64,000 nt of DNA from Acidimicrobiia bacterium (GTDB lineage: Bacteria; Actinomycetota; Acidimicrobiia; Spongiisociales; UBA11373): assembly GCA_040902765.1 (NCBI GenBank), contig JBBDWO010000025.1, positions 14,132 through 78,131 on the forward strand, written 5' to 3'. A program made the position numbers and the translations under genes. The notes under the pieces were generated by a model. The model was given only the letters and a program-made list of their open reading frames with translations, was not told the DNA's origin and made no database searches. The stretch's first letter is position 1; every line of letters begins with the position of its first letter. Positions 44,457-55,777 of this stretch are shown here, in pieces.

Positions 44457-46034
44457 TCACCCGGGAAGAACCGACGGCTGGGTCCGTTGGAAATACTGGC
44501 GGCGGGGGACTGGGGACTGGCGGCTAATCTCTGCCGCCCACGTCGGAGTGGCGGAACTGGTAGACGCGCTAGGTTGAGGGCCTAGTGGGCGAAAGCTCGT
44601 GGAGGTTCGAGTCCTCTCTCCGACACGCTGAAAACCCGACCCTCCGGTGAGGCCCACCTCCTGGAGGGTCACGTTCATTCGGGGAGCGCCTGACACCTTC
44701 ACCTCCAGATGGTCCGGGAAGATCGCGATCTCATCGAGGAGATCTGAGGCGATGATCCACCGCTCCCGGTCCGTGGCCTCGTTCCAGATCTCCTCGATGT
44801 CGATGTCGGCCAGATGCCGAGCGACATCCTCGAAAGCCTGCGCGATAGCACCGCTCTCCTCGAGCCGCCGCCTCTCTCCGGCCAACTCGCCCTCGAGCCG
44901 CTCCAACTGGGTCGTGAGCTCGCCCTCCTCCTCGGCGAAGAGGTCGGCGCTGACCTGACCTGCGTAGTGCAGCTGGAGCAGTTGACGCCGCCGCTCCCGG
45001 AGCTCACCGACCTGCGTAGCCGCCCGGCCGTCCGCCAGTTTGGCGGCTCGGCCGGACGCCATCCGCATGTGCCGGCGAATCGCATCCTGGAGCGCATCGT
45101 CCCTGCCCACCAGCCTCAATCCGAGGAGCCCGGCCCGCTCGATGCCCTTCACCGACCTCCGCGGCTGATCACACCCCGACCCACGATGAATGCACCGGTA
45201 GAAGCGCCCCCCTTGCCCGTTGCTGTCTACGCCAGCCACTCGCCGACACAACCCGCAGCGCACCACGCCGGAGAGGGGATGACGGCTCTGCCTCTTGCGG
45301 CCCGCAACCCAACCCCGTTGAGCACGCTTCCACTCCTCCTCGGTCACAATCGCTCGATGTCGGCCAGGGAACCAATCGCCCCTCCACACAACCTCGCCTA
45401 GGTACACCCGCGACCCGAGGATCCCTCGCGCCGTCGAATACTTCACACCGGTACGACGCTCGATGTCGGTGTAGGAACACCCCTCCGCACGCAATTGAAA
45501 AATGTGACGCACCACGTCGGCATCGCCGTTGGGCACAAGCTCGCCGTCGATGAGGTCATACCCCGTCTTGGGCCGGTTGATCCACTTGCCCTCCTGCACC
45601 GCTCGAGTCATGCCCATCACCACGTTCTCGGCGAGCTGCTCCCGGTAGAACTGTGCGAACGAACCGAGCACGTTGTAGAACATGCGCCCGGTCGCCGACG
45701 ACAGATCGAGGCGCTCGGTGAACGAGTGCAGCGCGACGTCGGCCTTCCCGAAGGTGTCGGCGAGCAGGATGAGGTCCCCGAGGTTCCGTGACAGCCGATC
45801 GAGCCGCCACACCAAGACGTGTCCGACGCGACCCTCCTCGATCATCGCGAGTACCTGTCGCAGGCCGGGCCGCTCGAGGTTCTTCCCCGACGCGCCCGGG
45901 TCTTCCACCACCGACACCGGTCCCAGGTCGTGGAGCTCGGCGTAGGCACGCAACTTGTCGGCCTGGCCCTGGATCGAGAAGCCCTCGGCCGCCTGCTCCT
46001 CAGTCGACACACGGCAGTAGGCAACGGTCAGCAC
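44457..46034 (-). CDS. large serine recombinase (serine integrase)
   Basis: AGGAGGG RBS and a GTG start at 46034. The catalytic motif VAYCRVSTEEQ is present with the downstream VLVWRLDRLSRN, a recombinase domain, and a zinc-ribbon CGLCRR...YRCIHRGSGC. The ORF has no stop before the tRNA and runs antisense through it, so the true C-terminus is uncertain. Confidence 0.8.
   Translation of the reverse strand: MLTVAYCRVSTEEQAAEGFSIQGQADKLRAYAELHDLGPVSVVEDPGASGKNLERPGLRQVLAMIEEGRVGHVLVWRLDRLSRNLGDLILLADTFGKADVALHSFTERLDLSSATGRMFYNVLGSFAQFYREQLAENVVMGMTRAVQEGKWINRPKTGYDLIDGELVPNGDADVVRHIFQLRAEGCSYTDIERRTGVKYSTARGILGSRVYLGEVVWRGDWFPGRHRAIVTEEEWKRAQRGWVAGRKRQSRHPLSGVVRCGLCRRVAGVDSNGQGGRFYRCIHRGSGCDQPRRSVKGIERAGLLGLRLVGRDDALQDAIRRHMRMASGRAAKLADGRAATQVGELRERRRQLLQLHYAGQVSADLFAEEEGELTTQLERLEGELAGERRRLEESGAIAQAFEDVARHLADIDIEEIWNEATDRERWIIASDLLDEIAIFPDHLEVKVSGAPRMNVTLQEVGLTGGSGFQRVGERTRTSTSFRPLGPQPSASTSSATPTWAAEISRQSPVPRRQYFQRTQPSVLPG
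44542..44625 (+). tRNA. tRNA-Leu (anticodon GAG), class II tRNA. It is the integration target of the downstream element.
   Basis: Acceptor strands GTCGGAG/CTCCGAC are perfectly complementary. D-arm TGGCGGAACTGGTAGACGCG, anticodon stem-loop CTAGG-TTGAGGG-CCTAG, long variable arm, and T-arm GGAGGTTCGAGTCCTCT. Confidence 0.8.
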
Positions 46035-46119
46035 GCGTCGCCCTCCTCTAGCCGCTTGCGCACGATCCGAAGACTCACCGCCACGAGCACCGACGCTACC
46101 CGCTCGAGGTCGCGCTCGC

Positions 46120-47220
46120 TCACAGCCCCCACTCCATCCTCCGGCGCTTCTTCGCCACTCGCTCGGTGAAGGGAATCCCAGTCTCGAGCTCCCACTCATG
46201 CAACACACCGGACGCGCTTCCCAGCGCATCATCAAGCGTCCCAATCTCGCGCAGGGCAGCAAAGCTGGACAGATAGCCGCAGAGCCCCGCGACGATCCGG
46301 CGCTCCGATGCCGCGCGCCGCGCCCCCGACACGCGACCGATGGTGACTGGACGATCCCGCAGCGAAGCCAAGCGAACCTGCTCCCACTCCTCTGCCACCG
46401 GCCACCGTGACCGAGTCGCGTCTCCTGTCGGAGCTCTCATCGACAGCCACTCCGTCCCGTACCCCCACAGCCCACCCGTCTCCCGAAGGAGATCAGCCGG
46501 CGAGTCAACCGAGCATTCCCGCAGCACCGACCGACCGAACTCGAACTCAACACGGACCACCGGATCCCCGTTCCGATAATTCGCCCCCCACCGATCGAAC
46601 CACCAGGTCGTACCGGTCCGGCGAGCCTGCCCCGACTTCTCGTAGATGCGGGCGGAGAGCCCGCCCCCAGACCGACGCCCGATCTGGAACCCAGTCCAGT
46701 GTCCTGCATCCTCATAGGTGGTCAACGTCTTGGCTCGCGTGACGAACCGATTCCGAGTCTCAGCGCTCAGCGTCAGCCCCTGGAAGTCGGCGTACAGGTC
46801 AGCCCTCGACACCGACCAATCGACACTGCACACCGACCCGACCACGTCCGAAAACGCATCCACAGCCGCTTGCGGACCCAGACCGGCCAGCAACTCGGCC
46901 CGAGGCTGCACACGCACCGCAGGCAAGTGCTGACTCGCCGTGAACCCCAGCAACCCATAGCTGTGCGACAACCGATACGCGTACTTCCCCCAGCCATGGC
47001 CGGACAGACCAAACTCGACACCGCCCAACTTGAACGGCACCGGCTCTCCCGCCTCAGCCGCTCGAGCCTTCCCCAGCTCCAGCATCCTGAGCAACGCCAC
47101 AGGCAGATTCCCTCGACCCGATAGGTACAACGCATCGATACCCGAGGCCAGCTCACGCACTCGCACAAGTGCGACTAGCGGAGACTGCAGAACGGCCTGG
47201 GTGGGGGAGTGACCGACCAT
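46120..47220 (-). CDS. replication initiator protein, Rep_trans-like (rolling-circle type) of the integrative element
   Basis: SRADLYADFQG resembles the Rep_trans sRiDla.D active-site region. The gene is co-oriented with and adjacent to the integrase, as in actinomycete integrative elements. Confidence 0.45.
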   Translation of the reverse strand: MVGHSPTQAVLQSPLVALVRVRELASGIDALYLSGRGNLPVALLRMLELGKARAAEAGEPVPFKLGGVEFGLSGHGWGKYAYRLSHSYGLLGFTASQHLPAVRVQPRAELLAGLGPQAAVDAFSDVVGSVCSVDWSVSRADLYADFQGLTLSAETRNRFVTRAKTLTTYEDAGHWTGFQIGRRSGGGLSARIYEKSGQARRTGTTWWFDRWGANYRNGDPVVRVEFEFGRSVLRECSVDSPADLLRETGGLWGYGTEWLSMRAPTGDATRSRWPVAEEWEQVRLASLRDRPVTIGRVSGARRAASERRIVAGLCGYLSSFAALREIGTLDDALGSASGVLHEWELETGIPFTERVAKKRRRMEWGL

Positions 47221-47228
47221 CGAACGAG

Positions 47229-47594
47229 CTACTCCTCCGAGCCCTTGGCTTCGAGGTAGTGCTCCCAGAACGCGACCGGATCGAGCTGCACCCCGACCAC
47301 CTTGTACTCATCCGGATGCATGCCAAAGATCGTCCGGAACCGCTTCAGCTTCCGATAGATCGTCGCCCGATGCCAGCCAGCACGCTCGAGCCCCTCAAAG
47401 CCTCCATACAGATGCCACGACGCCCAGAACCCCAGCATGTCGGCACTCCACCTGGCGGTCAGCCTCGCGACCGCATCCCTACGGATGCCGTCGGTCGCTG
47501 AATACGCCGTGTCCAAGTACCTGTCCCATGCACGCCGCGCCAAACCGCGGCCCTCAGCAGACTCCGACCGCTTCTTCCGAAGATCGTCATTCAT
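47229..47594 (-). CDS. small HTH DNA-binding protein (excisionase/regulator-like)
   Basis: 121 aa with the HTH HRATIYRKLKRF. It lies immediately upstream of rep on the same strand (xis-rep-int-like order). Confidence 0.45.
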   Translation of the reverse strand: MNDDLRKKRSESAEGRGLARRAWDRYLDTAYSATDGIRRDAVARLTARWSADMLGFWASWHLYGGFEGLERAGWHRATIYRKLKRFRTIFGMHPDEYKVVGVQLDPVAFWEHYLEAKGSEE

Positions 47595-47727
47595 AGTCGC
47601 ATCCTAGCGACCACAAACGACAAGGATGTAATCCTGTCGTCAACTTCCTGTACGATGCAGTTTGAGGGTGCTGTGATACAGGACACGCACCCGCTGGCTC
47701 TATTGTCGAATCGAAACGAGGACGCCT

Positions 47728-47946
47728 ATGGACAAGCAGGAGGAAATGGTTCGGTTGCTCGCTCTCCAGTTTCGGGCGATGGTTCCGAACCAGGCCGAAG
47801 CGATCCGACAATTGAGCAAGCTCAAGTTTGGGACGAAGCGGATCGCCGAGCTCTTGGGTACTACAGCGAACACTGTGAACGTGACCCTCCAGCAAGCCAG
47901 GAAGGCCCCCTCGAAGGCAGCAAAGGACACTCGGAAGAATGGCTGA
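47728..47946 (+). CDS. small HTH protein (sigma-70 region-4-like), first gene of the TIR operon
   Basis: 72 aa with KRIAELLGTTANTVNVTLQQARK. Confidence 0.45.
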   Translation: MDKQEEMVRLLALQFRAMVPNQAEAIRQLSKLKFGTKRIAELLGTTANTVNVTLQQARKAPSKAAKDTRKNG

Positions 47947-48238
47947 CGAAGAGATCACCCGACGCCTTGACGCAATCATTGCGATTCTCAAGCTCGCTCA
48001 CAGCGACTCCCTGACTGCCACGCGAGAGTCGTTGCTCCGCAATGAGGTAATCGCAGCCATTCTTGACGTTACTCGTGACGACTTCGTACCGTCCGGTGAT
48101 ATCAAGGCTGCCGTGAGTAAGAGCACGAGTGCGAAGGATAAGACCATCCAGCGCCGCCTGACCGACTTGGTTGCCATGGGGGTGCTCGAGAAGAAGCCGC
48201 ACGCGCGCGCCGCCTATCGGTCAACGGGTGTCGTTTGA
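47939..48238 (+). CDS. small winged-helix protein, second gene of the TIR operon
   Basis: 99 aa with KTIQRRLTDLVAMGVLEKK. The start overlaps the upstream stop (ATGGCTGA). Confidence 0.45.
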   Translation: MADEEITRRLDAIIAILKLAHSDSLTATRESLLRNEVIAAILDVTRDDFVPSGDIKAAVSKSTSAKDKTIQRRLTDLVAMGVLEKKPHARAAYRSTGVV

Positions 48239-48241
48239 CGC

Positions 48242-48676
48242 ATGAGTGAGTCGCTCGACGCCTTTGCTGAACTCCAGGCAATTCGCAGCCGGCTTGATGG
48301 GATCGAGCACCGCCAGGAAATGCTCGTCCGGGCTCAAGCCGAGGAGATCCTGGCGGCGATCTGGACCATCATGGATAACGACCCCATGCTCGCGCCCACG
48401 TACCTGCTCGTTGACGGATCGCGTACGCAGCAACAGATCGCAAAGGAGCTCAGGCAAGGCGGCCATCCCGCGAGCGACGCAAGCATCTCTCGCAAACTCA
48501 AGCGTCTGAGAAATGACTTGGGGTTAGTGGAGCTCCTAGAACATACGGCAGCCGGAAAGGCCTATGGTAAGTCTGCCCTGGATCGGATTCTCAACCTAAC
48601 GCCAAAGGTCGAAAAGCGGGTAGAGGCACGCACGAAGGCGCGTGCCAAACCCAAGAAGACGAAGTCGTCTGGATGA
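48242..48676 (+). CDS. small winged-helix protein, third gene of the TIR operon
   Basis: 144 aa with SRTQQQIAKEL...SISRKLKRLRNDLGLVELL and a Lys-rich tail. Its stop overlaps the TIR gene start (ATGA). Confidence 0.45.
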   Translation: MSESLDAFAELQAIRSRLDGIEHRQEMLVRAQAEEILAAIWTIMDNDPMLAPTYLLVDGSRTQQQIAKELRQGGHPASDASISRKLKRLRNDLGLVELLEHTAAGKAYGKSALDRILNLTPKVEKRVEARTKARAKPKKTKSSG

Positions 48677-49407
48677 CGCAGCCGAGCGAGCCGAGCGAGC
48701 GGGAGCTCCTGAGTCAGCTGAACCACGAGTTCCGGCGCCGCGGGTGGCGCGACAACGAGAACACTGCGCTAGCCATCGTGCGCGCGATCGAGGAGACCCG
48801 AGGCCGCGTCAATGTTGCTCGCTTGGCCAGAGTCCCATCCCGCACGTTCCTAAGTGACAATGCAGCGACCAGAAGGGATGTCAGGCAGGCCGTCAACTCG
48901 GCCATAGGTGAGTCCGATCTCATCTTGATCCGGGCGAAGCTTGGGGAGATCGCGTCTCGGCTTGACGATCTCGATTCCGAGCAGTCGCGGGCAGCGAGGG
49001 AGTTTGATGTCTTCATCTGCCACGCGAGCGAAGACAAGGATGACTTTGTTCGCCCACTCGCCTTGTCCCTGCGCGCCGAGGGGCTCACCGTCTGGTACGA
49101 CGAGTTCGAGCTGCATCTAGGTGACAGCGTGCGGAGGAAGATCGACGCCGGAATTGCCAACAGCCGCTTCGGCGTGATCATTCTCTCGCCGAGCTTCTTC
49201 TCGAAGAGCTGGCCCCAGCACGAGCTCGACGGCCTGGTGACCCGCTCTGTCAGCGGGGTTCAAGTGCTCCTACCGATCTGGCATGGAGTCACACAGGAGG
49301 ACGTGATGGTCTTCAGCCCCTCACTGGCTGACAAGTACGCAGCCCAAAGCGACATGTTCACGGTTGATGAGATTGCTGCTCAGATCGCGTACGTTGTACA
49401 CCGCTAG
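48673..49407 (+). CDS. TIR-domain protein (N-terminal domain of unknown function of about 115 aa plus C-terminal TIR); putative antiphage effector/sensor
   Basis: Canonical bacterial TIR motifs are present (FDVFICHASEDKDDFVRPLALSLRAEGLTVWYDEFELHLGDSVRRKIDAGIANSRFGVIILSPSFFSKSWPQHELDGL...LPIWHGV), including the catalytic Glu in the SPSFF.KSW.Q.EL region. The region has lower GC than the chromosome. Confidence 0.8.
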   Translation: MTQPSEPSERELLSQLNHEFRRRGWRDNENTALAIVRAIEETRGRVNVARLARVPSRTFLSDNAATRRDVRQAVNSAIGESDLILIRAKLGEIASRLDDLDSEQSRAAREFDVFICHASEDKDDFVRPLALSLRAEGLTVWYDEFELHLGDSVRRKIDAGIANSRFGVIILSPSFFSKSWPQHELDGLVTRSVSGVQVLLPIWHGVTQEDVMVFSPSLADKYAAQSDMFTVDEIAAQIAYVVHR

Positions 49408-49629
49408 TCAGGGGGCGTCGGCACGGATGCGCCCGGGTCTCAGACCACGCAATTAACCAGTCGTAGTAGCCGATACCCCACTCTTGCCCGGGGAGCAGAG
49501 GCCCAACCCCCAAAGGCTCGGGAGTGACGTCGGACTCGTCGACCGACGCCTGACTTACAGTCGAGACTCAGATCCCACGGCCTAAGCCTCCATGCGTTGT
49601 CTGCTTGATCACCCGACGGCTCCCCACTC

Positions 49630-52383
49630 CTAAGTCCCCCCCACCATGTCGTTGTAGAGCCCCAGCAGATGACTCACTCGCTCGGCGTCACTCCCAAGTC
49701 GACGCCTGCCCACATATGACCGCTCTACCGCTCGATCCAATGCTGCGTGTGCCTGCACGAGGTCACGCGGCATTGCGAGGTGATCGTACATGGCGGCGAG
49801 CGAAGCATCTGGATACTGCCTCCTCCTAGCCACCACAGCCTCAGCAGCCTCCTCGATACCGCCATCGGGCGATCGCTCCGGCCATGGGAATGGGTTGTAG
49901 ACAGTGCCAGGCGAGAGCTGCAGACGGCTCTCGAGCCGGCCCGACACCGTCCGGAGCCAAGCCATGAACATGCTCGACTGCATCACGCCGAACAGCCACG
50001 AGTCCGCGTCTGGGACGCACCAGGACGGCGCCCGGACGAGTGCTTTGGGGCCACAGATTGCCATCGGGACGATCGGACGGAGTTCGGAGCTCACGTAGGG
50101 AACAAGGAGAAACGAAGCGCCGACGTCGCGTGGCTCCGTGAAGAGGTGAGGCGTCGCCGCAGCCTCTCGAGTCGCGGCTCTGGAACTTGCCTGGCGATAT
50201 TGCTTAACAGCCTCCACACGCTCGCGGATCAGTCGGGAACCGCGAAGCTCGCCCGGGGTCGCGCTCTCGAGCCACAGCGCCCATCGTTTGTGACCATGAA
50301 GGAGCTCCTTACCGCCCAGGTACGGCCGCAGGAAGCGCGCAGCCACAGGATCGCTCAGAGCCGCGCCAACGTTTGTCTCGTCGAACAATAGATGGCCGCC
50401 GTCATTGGCCATGCTGCCGTACTTGGCAGACGGTACGGAGTCCGTAAGGAGGGAACGTGATTGGGCAACGAGGACCGGTTCTCCATCTATCAGGTACGGA
50501 CTTATCTGCTCAGCAGACAGTTCGACGGGATCTCCTCGGTAGTGCGCGTAGTCGAAGATCCGCCTCTCGGTGTCCACAACGCCCATCGAGAATCCGACAA
50601 TGACAACGTGAACTGCCGCGCGACCGCTTGCCTCACTGGTCCATGCGAAGGGACGGTGAGCGAAGTCGATCTTCACCCCAGCTTCAAGAAGCCTGGGCCA
50701 CAGCGCACCGACATTCTGGCCCTGGCTGATCGAATTCGTAGCCACGAACGCGCAGCGTGCGCTTGTGCCCGAGATATATGTCGCTGCCTTCGAAAGCCAG
50801 GCAGCGACATAATCCAGCACACCGTGACCCGGTGCGTTATCGAAGGCGATACGCATGTCCTCCTGCTGTTCCGCGGTCCGGTACTGCCGCCCCCCGAAAG
50901 GGGGATTACCAATCACGTACGACACGTCGGAAGGCGCGACCACCGACGCCCAGTCAAGGCGCAGTGCGTTCCCTATCTTTATTTGGGGTGAAGATGGGAT
51001 CGGAAACCTCACGTAGTGCTGTCCGAACTCCGCGGACACGGCTCGGTTGGCCATATGGTCCATCAGGTAGAGGGCTGTTCGCGCGATTCGCGCCGGAAAC
51101 TCCTCGATCTCGATCCCGTAGAACTGGTCGACGGCTACGCGACAGAGCAGGTCAAGGTCTGACGTCAGCTGACCACCGACCTCCCGGCGCCCTGATCGTC
51201 CGGCAGTCTGGAGCCGTCGCAGGGCCTCTGTCTCTAGTCGGCGAAGCTCCCGGTAGCTCACTACTAGGAAGTTGCCGCACCCGCAGGCTGGATCGAGGAT
51301 CCTAAGAGAGGCGATGCGATCTAGGAATGCCTGAAGCTTCGGCCGACTGCGTGCCTGCTCAAGTTCCTGTTCAAAGTCGTCGAGGAACAGAGGTCGGATT
51401 GTCCTGAGAATGTTCTCCTCTGACGTGTAGTGCGCACCCAGTTGACGTCGCTCGGCAGCTGTCATCACGTTCTGGAACATCGAACCGAAGATGGCAGGGC
51501 TAATAGCGGCCCAGTTGAACCGACAGGCATCCAGGAGTGCGTTGCGGATCTCCTCGGTACAGGAGGGGATAGGTAGCCGAGTCTCGAAAATGTCCCCATT
51601 GATGTACGTGAACCCCGACAAGTCCTCGTCGAGGTTGGGAGATCGCTCTTCCTCAGGAGTGTCAAGCACTTGGAAGATCTCAGCAAGTCGAGAGCCCAGG
51701 TCACTGCCGTCGACTCGTGTCTGATGGACCACGAACGAGTGAAACAGCGCGCGCTCCCAGACCCCCGTGTCATCGGCGAATAGACAGAAGAGAACTCGCG
51801 TGAGCCACTCGCGGGTTGGAGCTTCTTCGTAGCCCGAGTCCGCCAGGGCATCGTGGATGTTGGCCATGAGCTGGGTCGCTGCGAGGTTGACGTCCTCGTC
51901 GTTTGCGAATGCCTCATTCGGGGCAGCGTGCCCCGCCATCCACCAGAACAGATGAACGTGATCAGCCAAGTCCCTGAGAGCGAATGACCCTTGGGTGCCA
52001 TCCACGAGATTGCGCCACCGGAACTTCCGAAAGTCGCACACGACGAGGAGCCAAGGTGACTCGGACTGGTGCAGGGTGGGCAGATAGTCGATCACTTGGT
52101 CCATCGCCTGGTCGAGACTCTGACCTGCTGACTTGTGCTCGACGGCCATGTGGCCCGGGTATAGAAGGTCGATCCAGCCCACGTTTCCCGTGGAAGCGCG
52201 CTCGGCGAGTAGCTCGAACTTGCCAACGAGCCTCCGATCGATGCCGAAGATGGCGAAGAACTCGTTCCAGAACGTCTGCTTCTCGGCGCTCTCCTGGACC
52301 GCGTCCTGCCAGCGACTGGCGAAAGAGGTCGCGCGCTCGCGAACTGTGTGTTTCGCGATGTCAGCGGTCACCGCGTCTGGCAT
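49630..52383 (-). CDS. Type IIL (IIG) restriction-modification enzyme, MmeI family (fused PD-(D/E)XK endonuclease plus N6-adenine methyltransferase plus TRD), 917 aa
   Basis: N-terminal D...EHK nuclease motif (WIDLLYPGHMAVEHKS). MmeI-family blocks are present (LFCLFADDT, NLDEDLSGFTYINGDIF, SPAIFGSMFQNVM, RRQLGAHYTSE, DPACGCGNFLVVSYRELRRLE, QFYGIEIEEFPARIA, VIGNPPFGG, CAFVATNSISQGQNVGALWP, IDFAHRPFAWTSEASGRAAVHVVIVGF, YNPFPWP). The size is nearly identical to MmeI (919 aa). Confidence 0.8.
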   Translation of the reverse strand: MPDAVTADIAKHTVRERATSFASRWQDAVQESAEKQTFWNEFFAIFGIDRRLVGKFELLAERASTGNVGWIDLLYPGHMAVEHKSAGQSLDQAMDQVIDYLPTLHQSESPWLLVVCDFRKFRWRNLVDGTQGSFALRDLADHVHLFWWMAGHAAPNEAFANDEDVNLAATQLMANIHDALADSGYEEAPTREWLTRVLFCLFADDTGVWERALFHSFVVHQTRVDGSDLGSRLAEIFQVLDTPEEERSPNLDEDLSGFTYINGDIFETRLPIPSCTEEIRNALLDACRFNWAAISPAIFGSMFQNVMTAAERRQLGAHYTSEENILRTIRPLFLDDFEQELEQARSRPKLQAFLDRIASLRILDPACGCGNFLVVSYRELRRLETEALRRLQTAGRSGRREVGGQLTSDLDLLCRVAVDQFYGIEIEEFPARIARTALYLMDHMANRAVSAEFGQHYVRFPIPSSPQIKIGNALRLDWASVVAPSDVSYVIGNPPFGGRQYRTAEQQEDMRIAFDNAPGHGVLDYVAAWLSKAATYISGTSARCAFVATNSISQGQNVGALWPRLLEAGVKIDFAHRPFAWTSEASGRAAVHVVIVGFSMGVVDTERRIFDYAHYRGDPVELSAEQISPYLIDGEPVLVAQSRSLLTDSVPSAKYGSMANDGGHLLFDETNVGAALSDPVAARFLRPYLGGKELLHGHKRWALWLESATPGELRGSRLIRERVEAVKQYRQASSRAATREAAATPHLFTEPRDVGASFLLVPYVSSELRPIVPMAICGPKALVRAPSWCVPDADSWLFGVMQSSMFMAWLRTVSGRLESRLQLSPGTVYNPFPWPERSPDGGIEEAAEAVVARRRQYPDASLAAMYDHLAMPRDLVQAHAALDRAVERSYVGRRRLGSDAERVSHLLGLYNDMVGGT

Positions 52384-52460: not shown

Positions 52461-52645
52461 CTAAGTCCTCCGAGCATTCAGCCGCCACTCTGCAACATGG
52501 CGCAGCGGTCGCTCACGGATGGGAATTGACCACGGCCTAAGCCGCCACTCTGTTTCACAGCCCGAAGGTTCGCTTACCGCCCGCAACCCGACCACGGCTT
52601 GAGCCGCCACTCTGTTTGATCGCCCGAAGGCTCTCCGACACTCGT
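52461..52645. repeat. three tandem degenerate direct repeats (about 60-70 bp units containing AGCCGCCACTCTG...GCCCGAAGG). The last ends in an 11-nt copy of the tRNA-Leu 3' end.
   Basis: The units are at about 52461-52520, 52521-52585 and 52586-52645. They share GACCACGGCYTRAGCCGCCACTCTGTTTSAYMGCCCGAAGGYTC. A related copy lies at 49571-49625 on the other side of the MmeI-like gene. Confidence 0.6.
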
Positions 52646-54691: not shown

Positions 54692-55777
54692 ATGTTGGAT
54701 ACCGCGCTCGTGTCACGAGCCGACCTCCTCGCCGAGATCCACGGATGCGAGCGGGATGTCGCCGCGGCGCGGGCTCGTCAGGTAGTGGTGCTGCGGGAGC
54801 TCATGCGTCGTGGTCAGGAGCCCGGCGCCGCCGAGCTGGCCGCTCTGCTCGATGCCTCGGCCCGCACGGCCCGTGATCTGCTGGAGACGGCGCGCCGGAC
54901 GCCCGAACGCTCGGTGTCGATGGAGCGGCTGTCCGCAGGCGACTCGTCGTTCGATCGCGCTGCTGCCGTCGCCTTCCTCATCGGGGCGGGGGCCGACGAT
55001 GAAACCGTGGCCACAGCCGAATACCGCGACATCGCGGGCGTCGAGCGGCTGCGCGCCCTACAGCGCAAGATCACCCGCCGCAGCGAGCTGGAGGCTCACC
55101 AGCAGCGTTCGGTGCGCTGCTGGCCGTCGCTGGACTCGGCGGTCGGCTTCATTCACGCCGAGCTGACCGGCACCGACTGGCAGCTCGTGACCGGAGCACT
55201 CGACAGCCGCGGCGACCGACTTCCTCGCGACGAGGTGGCCACCGCGGAGCAGCGCCGCGCCGATGCGCTCGTCGCGCTGGCCCACGACTGGCTCGACGGC
55301 CGCCACTGCCCGACCGAGGAGTCCTCGTCGACAGCGATCGTCACCGTTCTCGTCGACCCCGAGCTCGCCTCGGCCACCAACGGCGAGGCCGGTGTGACGA
55401 TCCCCGCCGGTCCCAGGGTCGGGCCATCCACCCTCGACGAGATCATGTGCGGTGGGGCGGTCGAGGTGGTCCTATCAGCCGACTCTGGCGTTCCGCTCGC
55501 GGTCGGCCCGACGACTCGGGTGGTGCCGCCGAAGGTGCGGAGATTCGTTCTCGCTCGTGACGGCGGATGCGTCGTCGAAGGATGCACCAGCCGTTATCGC
55601 CTCGAAGTGCACCACGTGATTCCCCGATCCCAAGGCGGCATCCATGACGCCGACAACCTCGTCACCCTGTGCTGGTATCACCACCACGTCGCCGTGCACG
55701 GCCGGGGTGAGCAGCTCGACCGTCAGAGTCCACCCGCTAGGCGGCGCCTCATCCCCGCCCGGGATCGCGACCCCTGA
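54692..55777 (+). CDS. DUF222-HNH endonuclease family protein (13E12-repeat type)
   Basis: C-terminal HNH motif (CVVEGCTSRYRLEVHHVIPRSQGGIHDADNLVTLCWYHHHVAVH) preceded by an Ala/Arg-rich DUF222-like region, as is typical of actinobacterial HNH proteins. Confidence 0.75.
   Translation: MLDTALVSRADLLAEIHGCERDVAAARARQVVVLRELMRRGQEPGAAELAALLDASARTARDLLETARRTPERSVSMERLSAGDSSFDRAAAVAFLIGAGADDETVATAEYRDIAGVERLRALQRKITRRSELEAHQQRSVRCWPSLDSAVGFIHAELTGTDWQLVTGALDSRGDRLPRDEVATAEQRRADALVALAHDWLDGRHCPTEESSSTAIVTVLVDPELASATNGEAGVTIPAGPRVGPSTLDEIMCGGAVEVVLSADSGVPLAVGPTTRVVPPKVRRFVLARDGGCVVEGCTSRYRLEVHHVIPRSQGGIHDADNLVTLCWYHHHVAVHGRGEQLDRQSPPARRRLIPARDRDP

Follow-up and report, generated by a model that had tools for sequence, protein, structure and literature searches.

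The stretch of DNA analyzed here, 64,000 nucleotides (nt) of contig JBBDWO010000025.1 from an Acidimicrobiia bacterium (the window), carries at positions 47728–49407 four co-oriented open reading frames (ORFs), all on the + strand, that belong to a recurring gene cassette. Their order is B-C-E-F: the first three encode small proteins of the helix-turn-helix (HTH) or winged-helix type, and the fourth encodes a protein (F, or W_g4) in which an N-terminal domain shared by the cassette family (the N-domain) precedes a TIR domain. Homologues of B, C, E and the N-domain of F were found in the same order at 16 other loci, where the place of the TIR domain is mostly taken by other modules. We assign a probability of about 55% to the reading, drawn from sequence and structure prediction, that the cassette is a conflict module, of either the abortive-infection or the toxin-antitoxin type, in which F would be the regulated toxic effector; any specific trigger can be named with much less confidence.

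Gene content and conservation of the cassette

The four genes are tightly packed. B and C overlap by 8 nt (ATGGCTGA, 47939–47946), C and E are separated by a 3-nt gap (48239–48241), and E and F share the 4-nt overlap ATGA (48673–48676). An initial interpretation made from the letters alone (the sequence-only reading) had described four co-oriented genes that are overlapping or coupled, and we recovered the ORF sizes and junctions exactly as given there. All four ORFs are full length in comparison with their homologues, and the exact sequence of F was matched in a single NCBI record, a metagenome-assembled genome (MAG) of Acidimicrobiia.

The 16 other loci (L001, L003–L006, L008–L015, L017, L020 and L021) come from soil metagenomes and from MAGs of Solirubrobacterales and Chloroflexota. 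The canonical cassette has six genes, A-B-C-D-E-F. Families A (67–85 amino acids (aa), HTH) and D (99–102 aa, a paralogue of C) are absent from the window, and families B (64–79 aa, sigma-region-4-like HTH), C (97–111 aa, winged helix), E (129–147 aa, winged helix with long helices) and F (203–285 aa, N-domain plus a variable C-terminal module) correspond to window genes 1 to 4. The window B is 52–58% identical to the B proteins of L001, L003 and L004 and 55% identical to that of L012; C is 44–49% identical to C at other loci and 34–38% to the paralogous D; and E, at 56–61% identity to its cassette family, has about 27 homologues at 52–63% identity. Hidden Markov models (HMMs) of the families matched the window ORFs with E-values of 5e-35 (B), 1.3e-41 (C), 4.7e-66 (E) and 4e-35 (N-domain) and found no further copies of cassette genes in the 64-kb window.

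The composition of the cassette varies from locus to locus. Gene D is also missing from the short forms L012, L008 and L006, and its absence is a normal variant. L012 reads A-B-C-E-F with a TIR domain in F, and the visible part of L013 ends in B-E-F with a CHAT domain. In L014, a 113-aa HTH gene stands between A-B-C and E-F and the last protein has a hydrophobic tail, whereas L015 has two HTH genes, C, E, an F made of a truncated N-domain and an unknown domain, and then a stand-alone N-domain gene. L020, on a Solirubrobacterales chromosome, has six A/B-like genes followed by E-F plus a stand-alone N-domain gene, and L021 (Ca. Limnocylindrales, Chloroflexota) has a stand-alone N-domain, two HTH genes and C-E-F with a transmembrane (TM)-rich module. 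The N-domain thus occurs once in the window and in the six-gene cassettes and more than once in L015, L020 and L021. The sole invariant pair across these variants is E followed by the N-domain protein, E being directly upstream wherever both ends are visible. Between adjacent genes the spacing runs from −8 to +13 nt at every locus (−8, +3 and −4 in the window), and 7 of 9 loci have the 4-nt overlap between E and F. Two individual loci deserve mention. The six consecutive A/B-type small HTH genes of L020 (11266–13070 of OY970300.1) stand before E-F without any C-type gene and represent an unusual local amplification, and in L007 (156–320) an E-family gene is intact for 25 codons and then runs into unrelated sequence beside an opposite-strand gene; the cassette was disrupted here, or else the metagenome contig is a chimera.

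The flanks of the cassettes differ as well. Housekeeping genes surround L003, L004 and L009, mobile-element genes of the Toprim/AAA_25 (primase/helicase) type flank L001, a tyrosine integrase and AbiEi/AbiEii flank L008, and several cassettes have no mobile-element genes within 6–8 kb. B, C and E are therefore co-conserved with the effector gene at 16 other loci amid different flanks, which establishes the synteny that the sequence-only reading had asked about and shows that the small genes are not ordinary mobile-element regulators unlinked to the TIR gene. The family is nevertheless sparsely distributed. The 185,579 GTDB species genomes contain no E-family relatives, the F alignment alone yielding four related loci there; a metagenome scan with the E alignment returned three short contigs only; and gene E had no match among IMG/VR viral contigs, GenBank phages or PLSDB plasmids.

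The assignment of the three small proteins to HTH and winged-helix folds, also made in the sequence-only reading, was examined with profile and structure comparisons. B matches Pfam Sigma70_r4_2 at 1.3e-5 and 25.2 bits, below the cutoff of 25.7, and the best Pfam/NCBIfam matches of C (HVO_A0261_N, E-value 0.003) and E (Arg_repressor, E-value 0.016) are sub-threshold too. The AlphaFold model of E, computed with 25 homologues, has a predicted local distance difference test (pLDDT) score of 87.7 and places a winged helix between a long N-terminal helix and C-terminal helices, and its top structural matches in Foldseek are the winged-helix regulators PadR, MarR and Fur. Profile-profile comparison with hhalign relates C to D at 99.9% and, over the winged helix, C to E at 71%, and shows that B is paralogous to family A (96%). 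The fold calls are thus backed by the model and by profile-profile comparison, although the Pfam matches stay below threshold. None of B, C and E had a match in PADLOC, nor did the F proteins that end in modules other than TIR.

Nine other cassettes share an upstream motif, AC[AG][CT][AG][CT]GTT[CT]G[CGT]TA (ACryryGTTyGnTA), followed by a TAnnnT hexamer. The motif always lies on the coding strand before the first gene, 44–46 nt from the start in the six-gene forms and 114–153 nt before it in the short forms, including L012, and its 9 matches in 215 kb compare with approximately 0.15 expected. This shared motif is consistent with a common (auto)regulation by the HTH proteins. It is not present upstream of the window gene B, where 133 nt separate B from an unrelated divergent gene, and tblastn with protein A found no gene A in the window. 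The window copy has thus been rearranged at its 5′ end. As none of its four ORFs is shortened and the TIR domain retains its active site, we regard it as probably functional. The window also contains a perfect 17-nt inverted repeat, CTGGAGGGTCACGTTCA / TGAACGTGACCCTCCAG, with one arm at 44661–44677, in the C-terminal coding region of the serine recombinase near the tRNA, and the other at 47876–47892, inside gene B. Each arm encodes NVTLQ in the gene where it lies, and codon bias may therefore explain the match as a coincidence; conceivably it is a recombination relic tied to the missing gene A.

The N-domain of F and its exchangeable C-terminal modules

The last protein of every cassette begins with the N-domain, a five-helix domain of about 75 aa with the consensus LVDEFERRGWRD..ALAIVRA.E..GG....LA..VP..FL..N..TR.DV..AL. 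Residues 8–90 of the window F share 43–49% identity with the N-terminal part of F in L001, L003 and L004 (E-values 1e-13 to 1e-18), and the C-terminal halves of these proteins are unrelated to that of the window F. The sequence-only reading had set aside the first 115 aa or so of F as one domain that it did not recognize; the region is indeed unrecognized, and it consists of two parts rather than one, the N-domain (residues ~8–80) and a linker of about 25 aa. No Pfam model, including those for EAD, the Death-like domain (bDLD) and TRADD-N, matched the window copy alone or any of 74 members, and the N-domain has no similarity to cassette proteins A–E (hhalign below 3%). In the model of the homologue P0151, the N-domain forms a confident five-helix bundle (pLDDT 90–98) whose structural matches are weak and HRDC- and Nab2-N-like.

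An exhaustive profile search with the N-domain returned 82 representative clusters and superseded a word-indexed protein search with the same alignment, which had found two fragments and missed known members; a handful of matches to giant SprB-repeat proteins were discarded as spurious and repeat-driven. The domain occurs as a stand-alone protein of 66–129 aa, N-terminal to TIR (the window F and P0155), fused to CHAT (P0197, P0205 and P0229, with Pfam E-values of 1e-10 to 1e-14), fused to an unrecognized C-terminal domain (P0151, P0225 and two partial sequences), fused to a region of about 130 aa with a terminal Gly-rich hydrophobic helix (approximately 13 clusters), and fused to other TM-rich or unknown tails. 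Counted by readable locus, the C-terminal module of F is the unrecognized domain in nine, TIR in two (the window and L012), CHAT in one and hydrophobic or membrane-type in three. The sequence-only reading had proposed a candidate undescribed TIR-based antiphage system. The cassette is conserved and we found no description of it, but "TIR-based" is the wrong label: the interchangeable modules number four or more, TIR among them, and most relatives carry the unrecognized domain. An antiphage role would follow from architecture and context.

The unrecognized C-terminal domain has the motifs DWGGE.SD, AF.LKG, G.NGDQ and QH and possibly adopts an Mrr-like nuclease fold. Searches of Pfam, PADLOC and PDB sequences with it were empty, and the BFVD viral fold library gave no significant match. 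The same domain also ends proteins of about 340 aa with a different unknown N-terminal region, at L018 (9431–10465) and L019 (5401–6402), in a Bacteroidota MAG and a Solirubrobacterales MAG. Because it is present behind another N-terminal region, we consider it an independent mobile module, one with no Pfam family.

The TIR half of the window F belongs to a known clade. It matches Pfam TIR_2 at 1.3e-20 and 74.5 bits (cutoff 28) over residues 113–205 and Pfam TIR at 46.8 bits (cutoff 21.3), and a search of PDB sequences returned AbTir (8g83/7uwg) at 2e-47 as well as 7uxr, 4lzp and 3h16, with TcpB/BtpA and PdTIR among these matches, so that the canonical TIR domain reported in the sequence-only reading is confirmed. 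Glu184 of F aligns with AbTir E208 in the motif WtnyELdG, Trp180 aligns with W204, and Gly150 and Ser152 align with G174 and S176 in the BB-loop. In AbTir, the E208A mutant is inactive, W204 is the residue linked to cyclase activity, G174 and S176 are needed for activity (their mutation lowers or abolishes NADase activity), and the NADase activity requires self-association (10.1101/2022.05.07.491051). Because E184, W180, G150 and S152 align with these functional residues, the window TIR looks catalytically competent as an NADase.

The closest relatives of the linker and TIR domain are abundant DUF1883-TIR proteins of about 260 aa, which align with F from about residue 85 on, at 58–69% identity. 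The PADLOC model PDC-S66 accordingly matches F at 4e-66 over residues 99–242 only (profile positions 137–280 of 282). DUF1883 (PF08980) itself gave no match in F at E-values up to 1, compared with 9e-26 for the true member P0016. That the N-terminus of F is a diverged DUF1883 was ruled out, because identity starts only at about residue 85 and the helical region before it is homologous to the cassette F proteins. The window F and the L012 F are 44% identical over 218 aa spanning both domains. Between the two TIR domains the identity is 55%, compared with up to 69% (window) and 61% (L012) to DUF1883-TIR proteins, and the DUF1883-TIR-type linker is kept in the window F and absent from the L012 F. 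Since each cassette TIR is closer to DUF1883-TIR than to the other cassette TIR, identity values, as distinct from a phylogeny, suggest that TIR modules were repeatedly captured or exchanged from the DUF1883-TIR pool.

PADLOC ThsB1 models also match the TIR half of F (3e-38), and the PADLOC matches to CBASS, Pycsar, retron-TIR, TIR-NLR and TIR-SAVED models are confined to the TIR residues of F. Neither W_g4 nor its neighbors contain a cyclase, a reverse transcriptase, a STAND NTPase or a SAVED domain. PADLOC and Pfam scans of the ORFs between 43.3 and 59.4 kb showed no ThsA, SIR2, SLOG, Macro, STING, SAVED, NLR or reverse-transcriptase partner, in line with the earlier statement that no known TIR partner is encoded within 10 kb.

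Genomic setting of the window copy

The sequence-only reading had placed the cassette in an integrative island beside a restriction-modification (RM) enzyme, and we found the expected elements of such an island: a tRNA-Leu gene, a serine recombinase, an MmeI-type enzyme and a dip in GC content, which is 0.58–0.62 over approximately 47.0–54.5 kb and 0.65–0.70 outside. The features are listed in Table 1.

Table 1. Positions of the cassette and of neighboring features in the window.
Feature	Position	Strand	Description
Large serine recombinase	44457–46262	−	Pfam Resolvase (1.7e-36), Recombinase, Zn_ribbon_recom; left end of the island
tRNA-Leu(gag)	44542–44626		Adjoins the recombinase
366-aa island gene	46120–47220	−	No Pfam, NCBIfam or PADLOC match
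121-aa island gene	47229–47594	−	Weak Fis-type C-terminal HTH
Region upstream of gene B	47595–47727		133 nt; without gene A and without the family upstream motif
Gene B	47728–47946	+	72 aa; small, basic; sigma-70 region-4-like HTH
Gene C	47939–48238	+	99 aa; N-terminal helix, then winged helix
Gene E	48242–48676	+	144 aa; long N-terminal helix, winged helix, C-terminal helices, basic tail
Gene F (W_g4)	48673–49407	+	244 aa; family N-domain, linker, TIR
N-domain of F	48694–48942	+	Residues 8–90; five-helix, adaptor-like
Linker of F	48925–49002	+	Residues 85–110; BLASTP identity to DUF1883-TIR proteins P0016 and P0005
TIR domain of F	49003–49398	+	Residues 111–242; AbTir/TcpB/PdTIR clade
Glu184 codon (GAG)	49222–49224	+	Predicted catalytic (WPQHELDGL); alignment with the AbTir Glu
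MmeI-family type IIG RM enzyme	49630–52383	−	Convergent with the cassette; five MmeI Pfam domains; PADLOC REase_MTase_IIG (3.9e-302)
HNH endonuclease with DUF222	54692–55777		Actinobacterial 13E12-type mobile HNH family; near the return of GC to the genome level

Several details of the island were noted in their own right. The serine-recombinase ORF (stop at 44457) runs antisense through the entire tRNA-Leu(gag) gene. Because it crosses this gene, its last ~57 codons lie outside the island proper, and the ORF was perhaps fused across the attachment junction by integration; the true start probably lies downstream of the listed one (46262), as the Resolvase domain begins at residue 80. The 366-aa and 121-aa genes, which diverge from the cassette, probably serve the integrative element in replication or excision, and they were ruled out as members of the system since they are unlinked to the cassette at other loci. 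A repeat of about 60 nt (core CCACGGCYTRAGCCGCCACTCTG) is present in three tandem copies just upstream of the MmeI-type gene (52477–52633). Immediately beyond the other end of the gene, on its downstream side, stands an 18-nt fragment of the repeat, CCACGGCCTAAGCCTCCA (49575–49592), so that the repeat brackets the RM gene. The 23-nt repeat core is not found at any other place in the window (expectation by chance, 0) and has no Rfam match; the Rfam scan of the window found only the two tRNAs. The HNH/DUF222 gene possibly marks the far side of the variable region.

Interpretation and comparison with known systems

The conserved synteny, the tight packing, the swapping of domains behind a common N-domain and the intact TIR active site argue for the reading of the cassette as a conflict module with a toxic effector. 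A defence-like context fits it, the window cassette lying on a tRNA-linked island beside an MmeI-type RM enzyme and L008 lying beside AbiE. In the mechanism we propose, the N-domain would serve as a docking or regulatory domain through which F is held inactive by, or recruited to, its DNA-binding partners, chiefly E, which is the prime candidate because it is always adjacent and usually translationally coupled to F. On a trigger, for example infection by a phage, F would be released or clustered; the TIR domains could then self-associate and destroy NAD+, possibly also yielding an isomer of cyclic ADP-ribose (cADPR), and the depletion of NAD+ would stop the growth of the infected cell. Effectors of the TIR, CHAT, nuclease-like and membrane types commonly act as oligomers, and for this reason the most economical common mechanism would be one in which a DNA-bound scaffold brings F proteins together (induced proximity) or F is freed from an inhibitory complex with E.

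Several observations weigh against this picture. Apart from the TIR half, no cassette component matches a known defence family in PADLOC, and several cassettes sit among housekeeping genes, outside recognizable defence islands. The docking role of the N-domain is conjecture, because the domain is similar neither to the partner proteins nor to curated adaptor families. Five DNA-binding proteins exceed the needs of a toxin-antitoxin pair, and the family is rare, with no E-family relatives in the GTDB species genome, phage, plasmid and IMG/VR collections. Because the window copy is without gene A and the upstream motif, it may also be expressed differently or be partly disabled.

More tentatively, the cassette could be viewed as a new class of immune system free of nucleoside triphosphatases (NTPases), with the paralogous small DNA-binding proteins as the sensor, the N-domain as the adaptor and the interchangeable effectors, be it a TIR NADase, a CHAT protease, a nuclease-like domain or a membrane disruptor, activated by induced proximity. 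Sensing might then take place by assembly on invading DNA, or the small proteins might serve as decoys for phage proteins directed against transcription factors of the host.

An addiction or toxin-antitoxin module, in which E, with or without the other HTH proteins, would be both antitoxin and autorepressor and F the toxin, stabilizing the island or the cassette with phage defence as an incidental effect, would account for a DNA-binding gene coupled upstream of a toxic-domain gene (the 4-nt E/F overlap at 7 of 9 loci), for the invariance of E and the N-domain protein alone among the pairs, for the movement of a compact unit into varied sites, including the integrative island of the window, and for a conserved upstream motif compatible with autorepression. 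We consider it doubtful all the same, given that a classical type II system has two genes, to which the cassette adds three to five HTH genes that form paralogous pairs, that several cassettes have no mobile-element genes within 6–8 kb, and that the stand-alone N-domain genes beside F in L015, L020 and L021 fit adaptor logic better. The addiction and abortive-infection readings overlap, as many toxin-antitoxin modules act as abortive-infection systems.

It is unlikely that the family is genuine but its copy in the window is silent or in decay, a remnant that lost A, D and its native promoter or operator when the island was assembled and no longer works. Gene A is missing, the motif present in nine other cassettes, including the TIR-type L012, is absent, and gene B lies only 133 nt from a divergent unrelated gene; yet the four ORFs are full length with their overlaps preserved and the TIR catalytic residues intact, D is missing from L012, L008 and L006 as well, and the 133-nt region could hold its own promoter. 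Still less probable is a Thoeris-like signaling role, in which the TIR domain would make a cADPR-type signal for a remote ThsA-like effector and the HTH proteins would only regulate expression. The ThsB1 match of the TIR half (3e-38) and the conserved cyclase-linked Trp point in that direction, and AbTir, the closest solved relative, makes 2'cADPR (10.1101/2022.05.07.491051), but the ORFs between 43.3 and 59.4 kb include no ThsA, SIR2, SLOG or Macro gene, and sister cassettes fill the TIR slot with CHAT, nuclease-like and membrane-type modules. Because these modules are terminal effectors and not signal generators, we take the slot to be an effector slot. Finally, chance adjacency of element regulators and a PDC-S66 or ThsB-like orphan TIR gene carried as unrelated cargo, which the recombinase on the island, the single-gene PADLOC candidate matched by the TIR half and the weak HTH matches might suggest, is refuted by the conserved synteny, since the gene order recurs at 16 other loci with and without mobile-element genes, the 121-aa and 366-aa island genes are unlinked to the cassette elsewhere, and the N-domain of W_g4 is common to the last gene of all those cassettes.

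Should the conflict-module reading hold, the cassettes would form a family of conflict systems in which every part except the effector is a small DNA-binding protein and no NTPase, cyclase, protease or helicase serves as sensor, and the N-domain would be a new adaptor-type domain carrying at least four unrelated effector classes. With four to six genes in less than 3 kb, the cassette would be a compact and tractable case of how TIR, CHAT and nuclease effectors are silenced and switched on, and the logic of effector-associated domains (EADs) would reach beyond NTPase-centered systems. The E-family and N-domain profiles could mark more loci in Actinomycetota and Chloroflexota, phyla thinly covered by defence catalogues.

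Among known systems, F resembles the AbTir/TcpB (BtpA)/PdTIR/BtTir group of bacterial TIR NADases, with TIR matches at E-values of 1e-40 to 1e-48 over residues ~106–242 and the catalytic Glu, the Trp and the BB-loop Gly and Ser retained; activity in the group requires self-association. Proteins of that group have an N-terminal coiled coil and are encoded by single genes, whereas F has a five-helix N-domain and is the last gene of an HTH operon. The DUF1883-TIR proteins (PDC-S66), the closest sequence relatives of the linker and TIR domain of F, are stand-alone genes with DUF1883, in whose place F has the cassette N-domain. PDC-S66 is one of the 145 "phage defence candidates" of the PADLOC PDC set, and F is not a member because the DUF1883 domain is absent. 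Similarity to Thoeris is seen in the ThsB1-type HMM match, and F is probably able to make cADPR isomers; the differences are the lack of ThsA within ±10 kb, the small HTH proteins as partners, and a TIR slot that elsewhere holds CHAT, nuclease-like or membrane modules. Because the required partners are absent from F and from the ORFs around it, the cassette is not Thoeris, CBASS, Pycsar, retron-TIR or TIR-NLR. The view that the TIR protein lies outside described multi-gene systems is borne out by the lack of a ThsA-like partner nearby and of PADLOC matches for the small proteins.

Two further comparisons concern the logic of the cassette as a whole. With the EAD systems (Kaur et al., eLife 2020, 2021; PMC7159879, PMC8195603) the cassette family has in common a small all-helical terminal domain carried by TIR, caspase-like, nuclease-like and membrane effectors, stand-alone copies of the domain, sometimes at the same locus (L015, L020 and L021), and hosts that are mostly Actinomycetota and Chloroflexota. 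Unlike these systems, the cassette has no NTPase, vWA-MoxR, STAND or GTPase core, its only partners are small HTH proteins, none of 74 N-domain members matches Pfam EAD, bDLD or TRADD-N, and the window and most cassettes have one domain copy. With type II toxin-antitoxin and AbiE systems it shares a winged-helix gene immediately upstream of, and coupled to, a gene of toxic type, a compact and mobile organization and a possible autoregulatory motif; it differs in having four to six genes, paralogous HTH pairs and an effector with a dedicated adaptor-like domain, and no family-level similarity of its proteins to known antitoxins was detected. A literature search on PDC-S66, DUF1883 with TIR, EAD with HTH partners, and TIR, CHAT or HTH proteins in defence found no description of the cassette, which is not proof of absence. 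The known part of the system is its TIR clade (AbTir/TcpB and DUF1883-TIR), and the apparently new part is the combination of an adaptor-like domain with an all-HTH partner set in a modular effector cassette.

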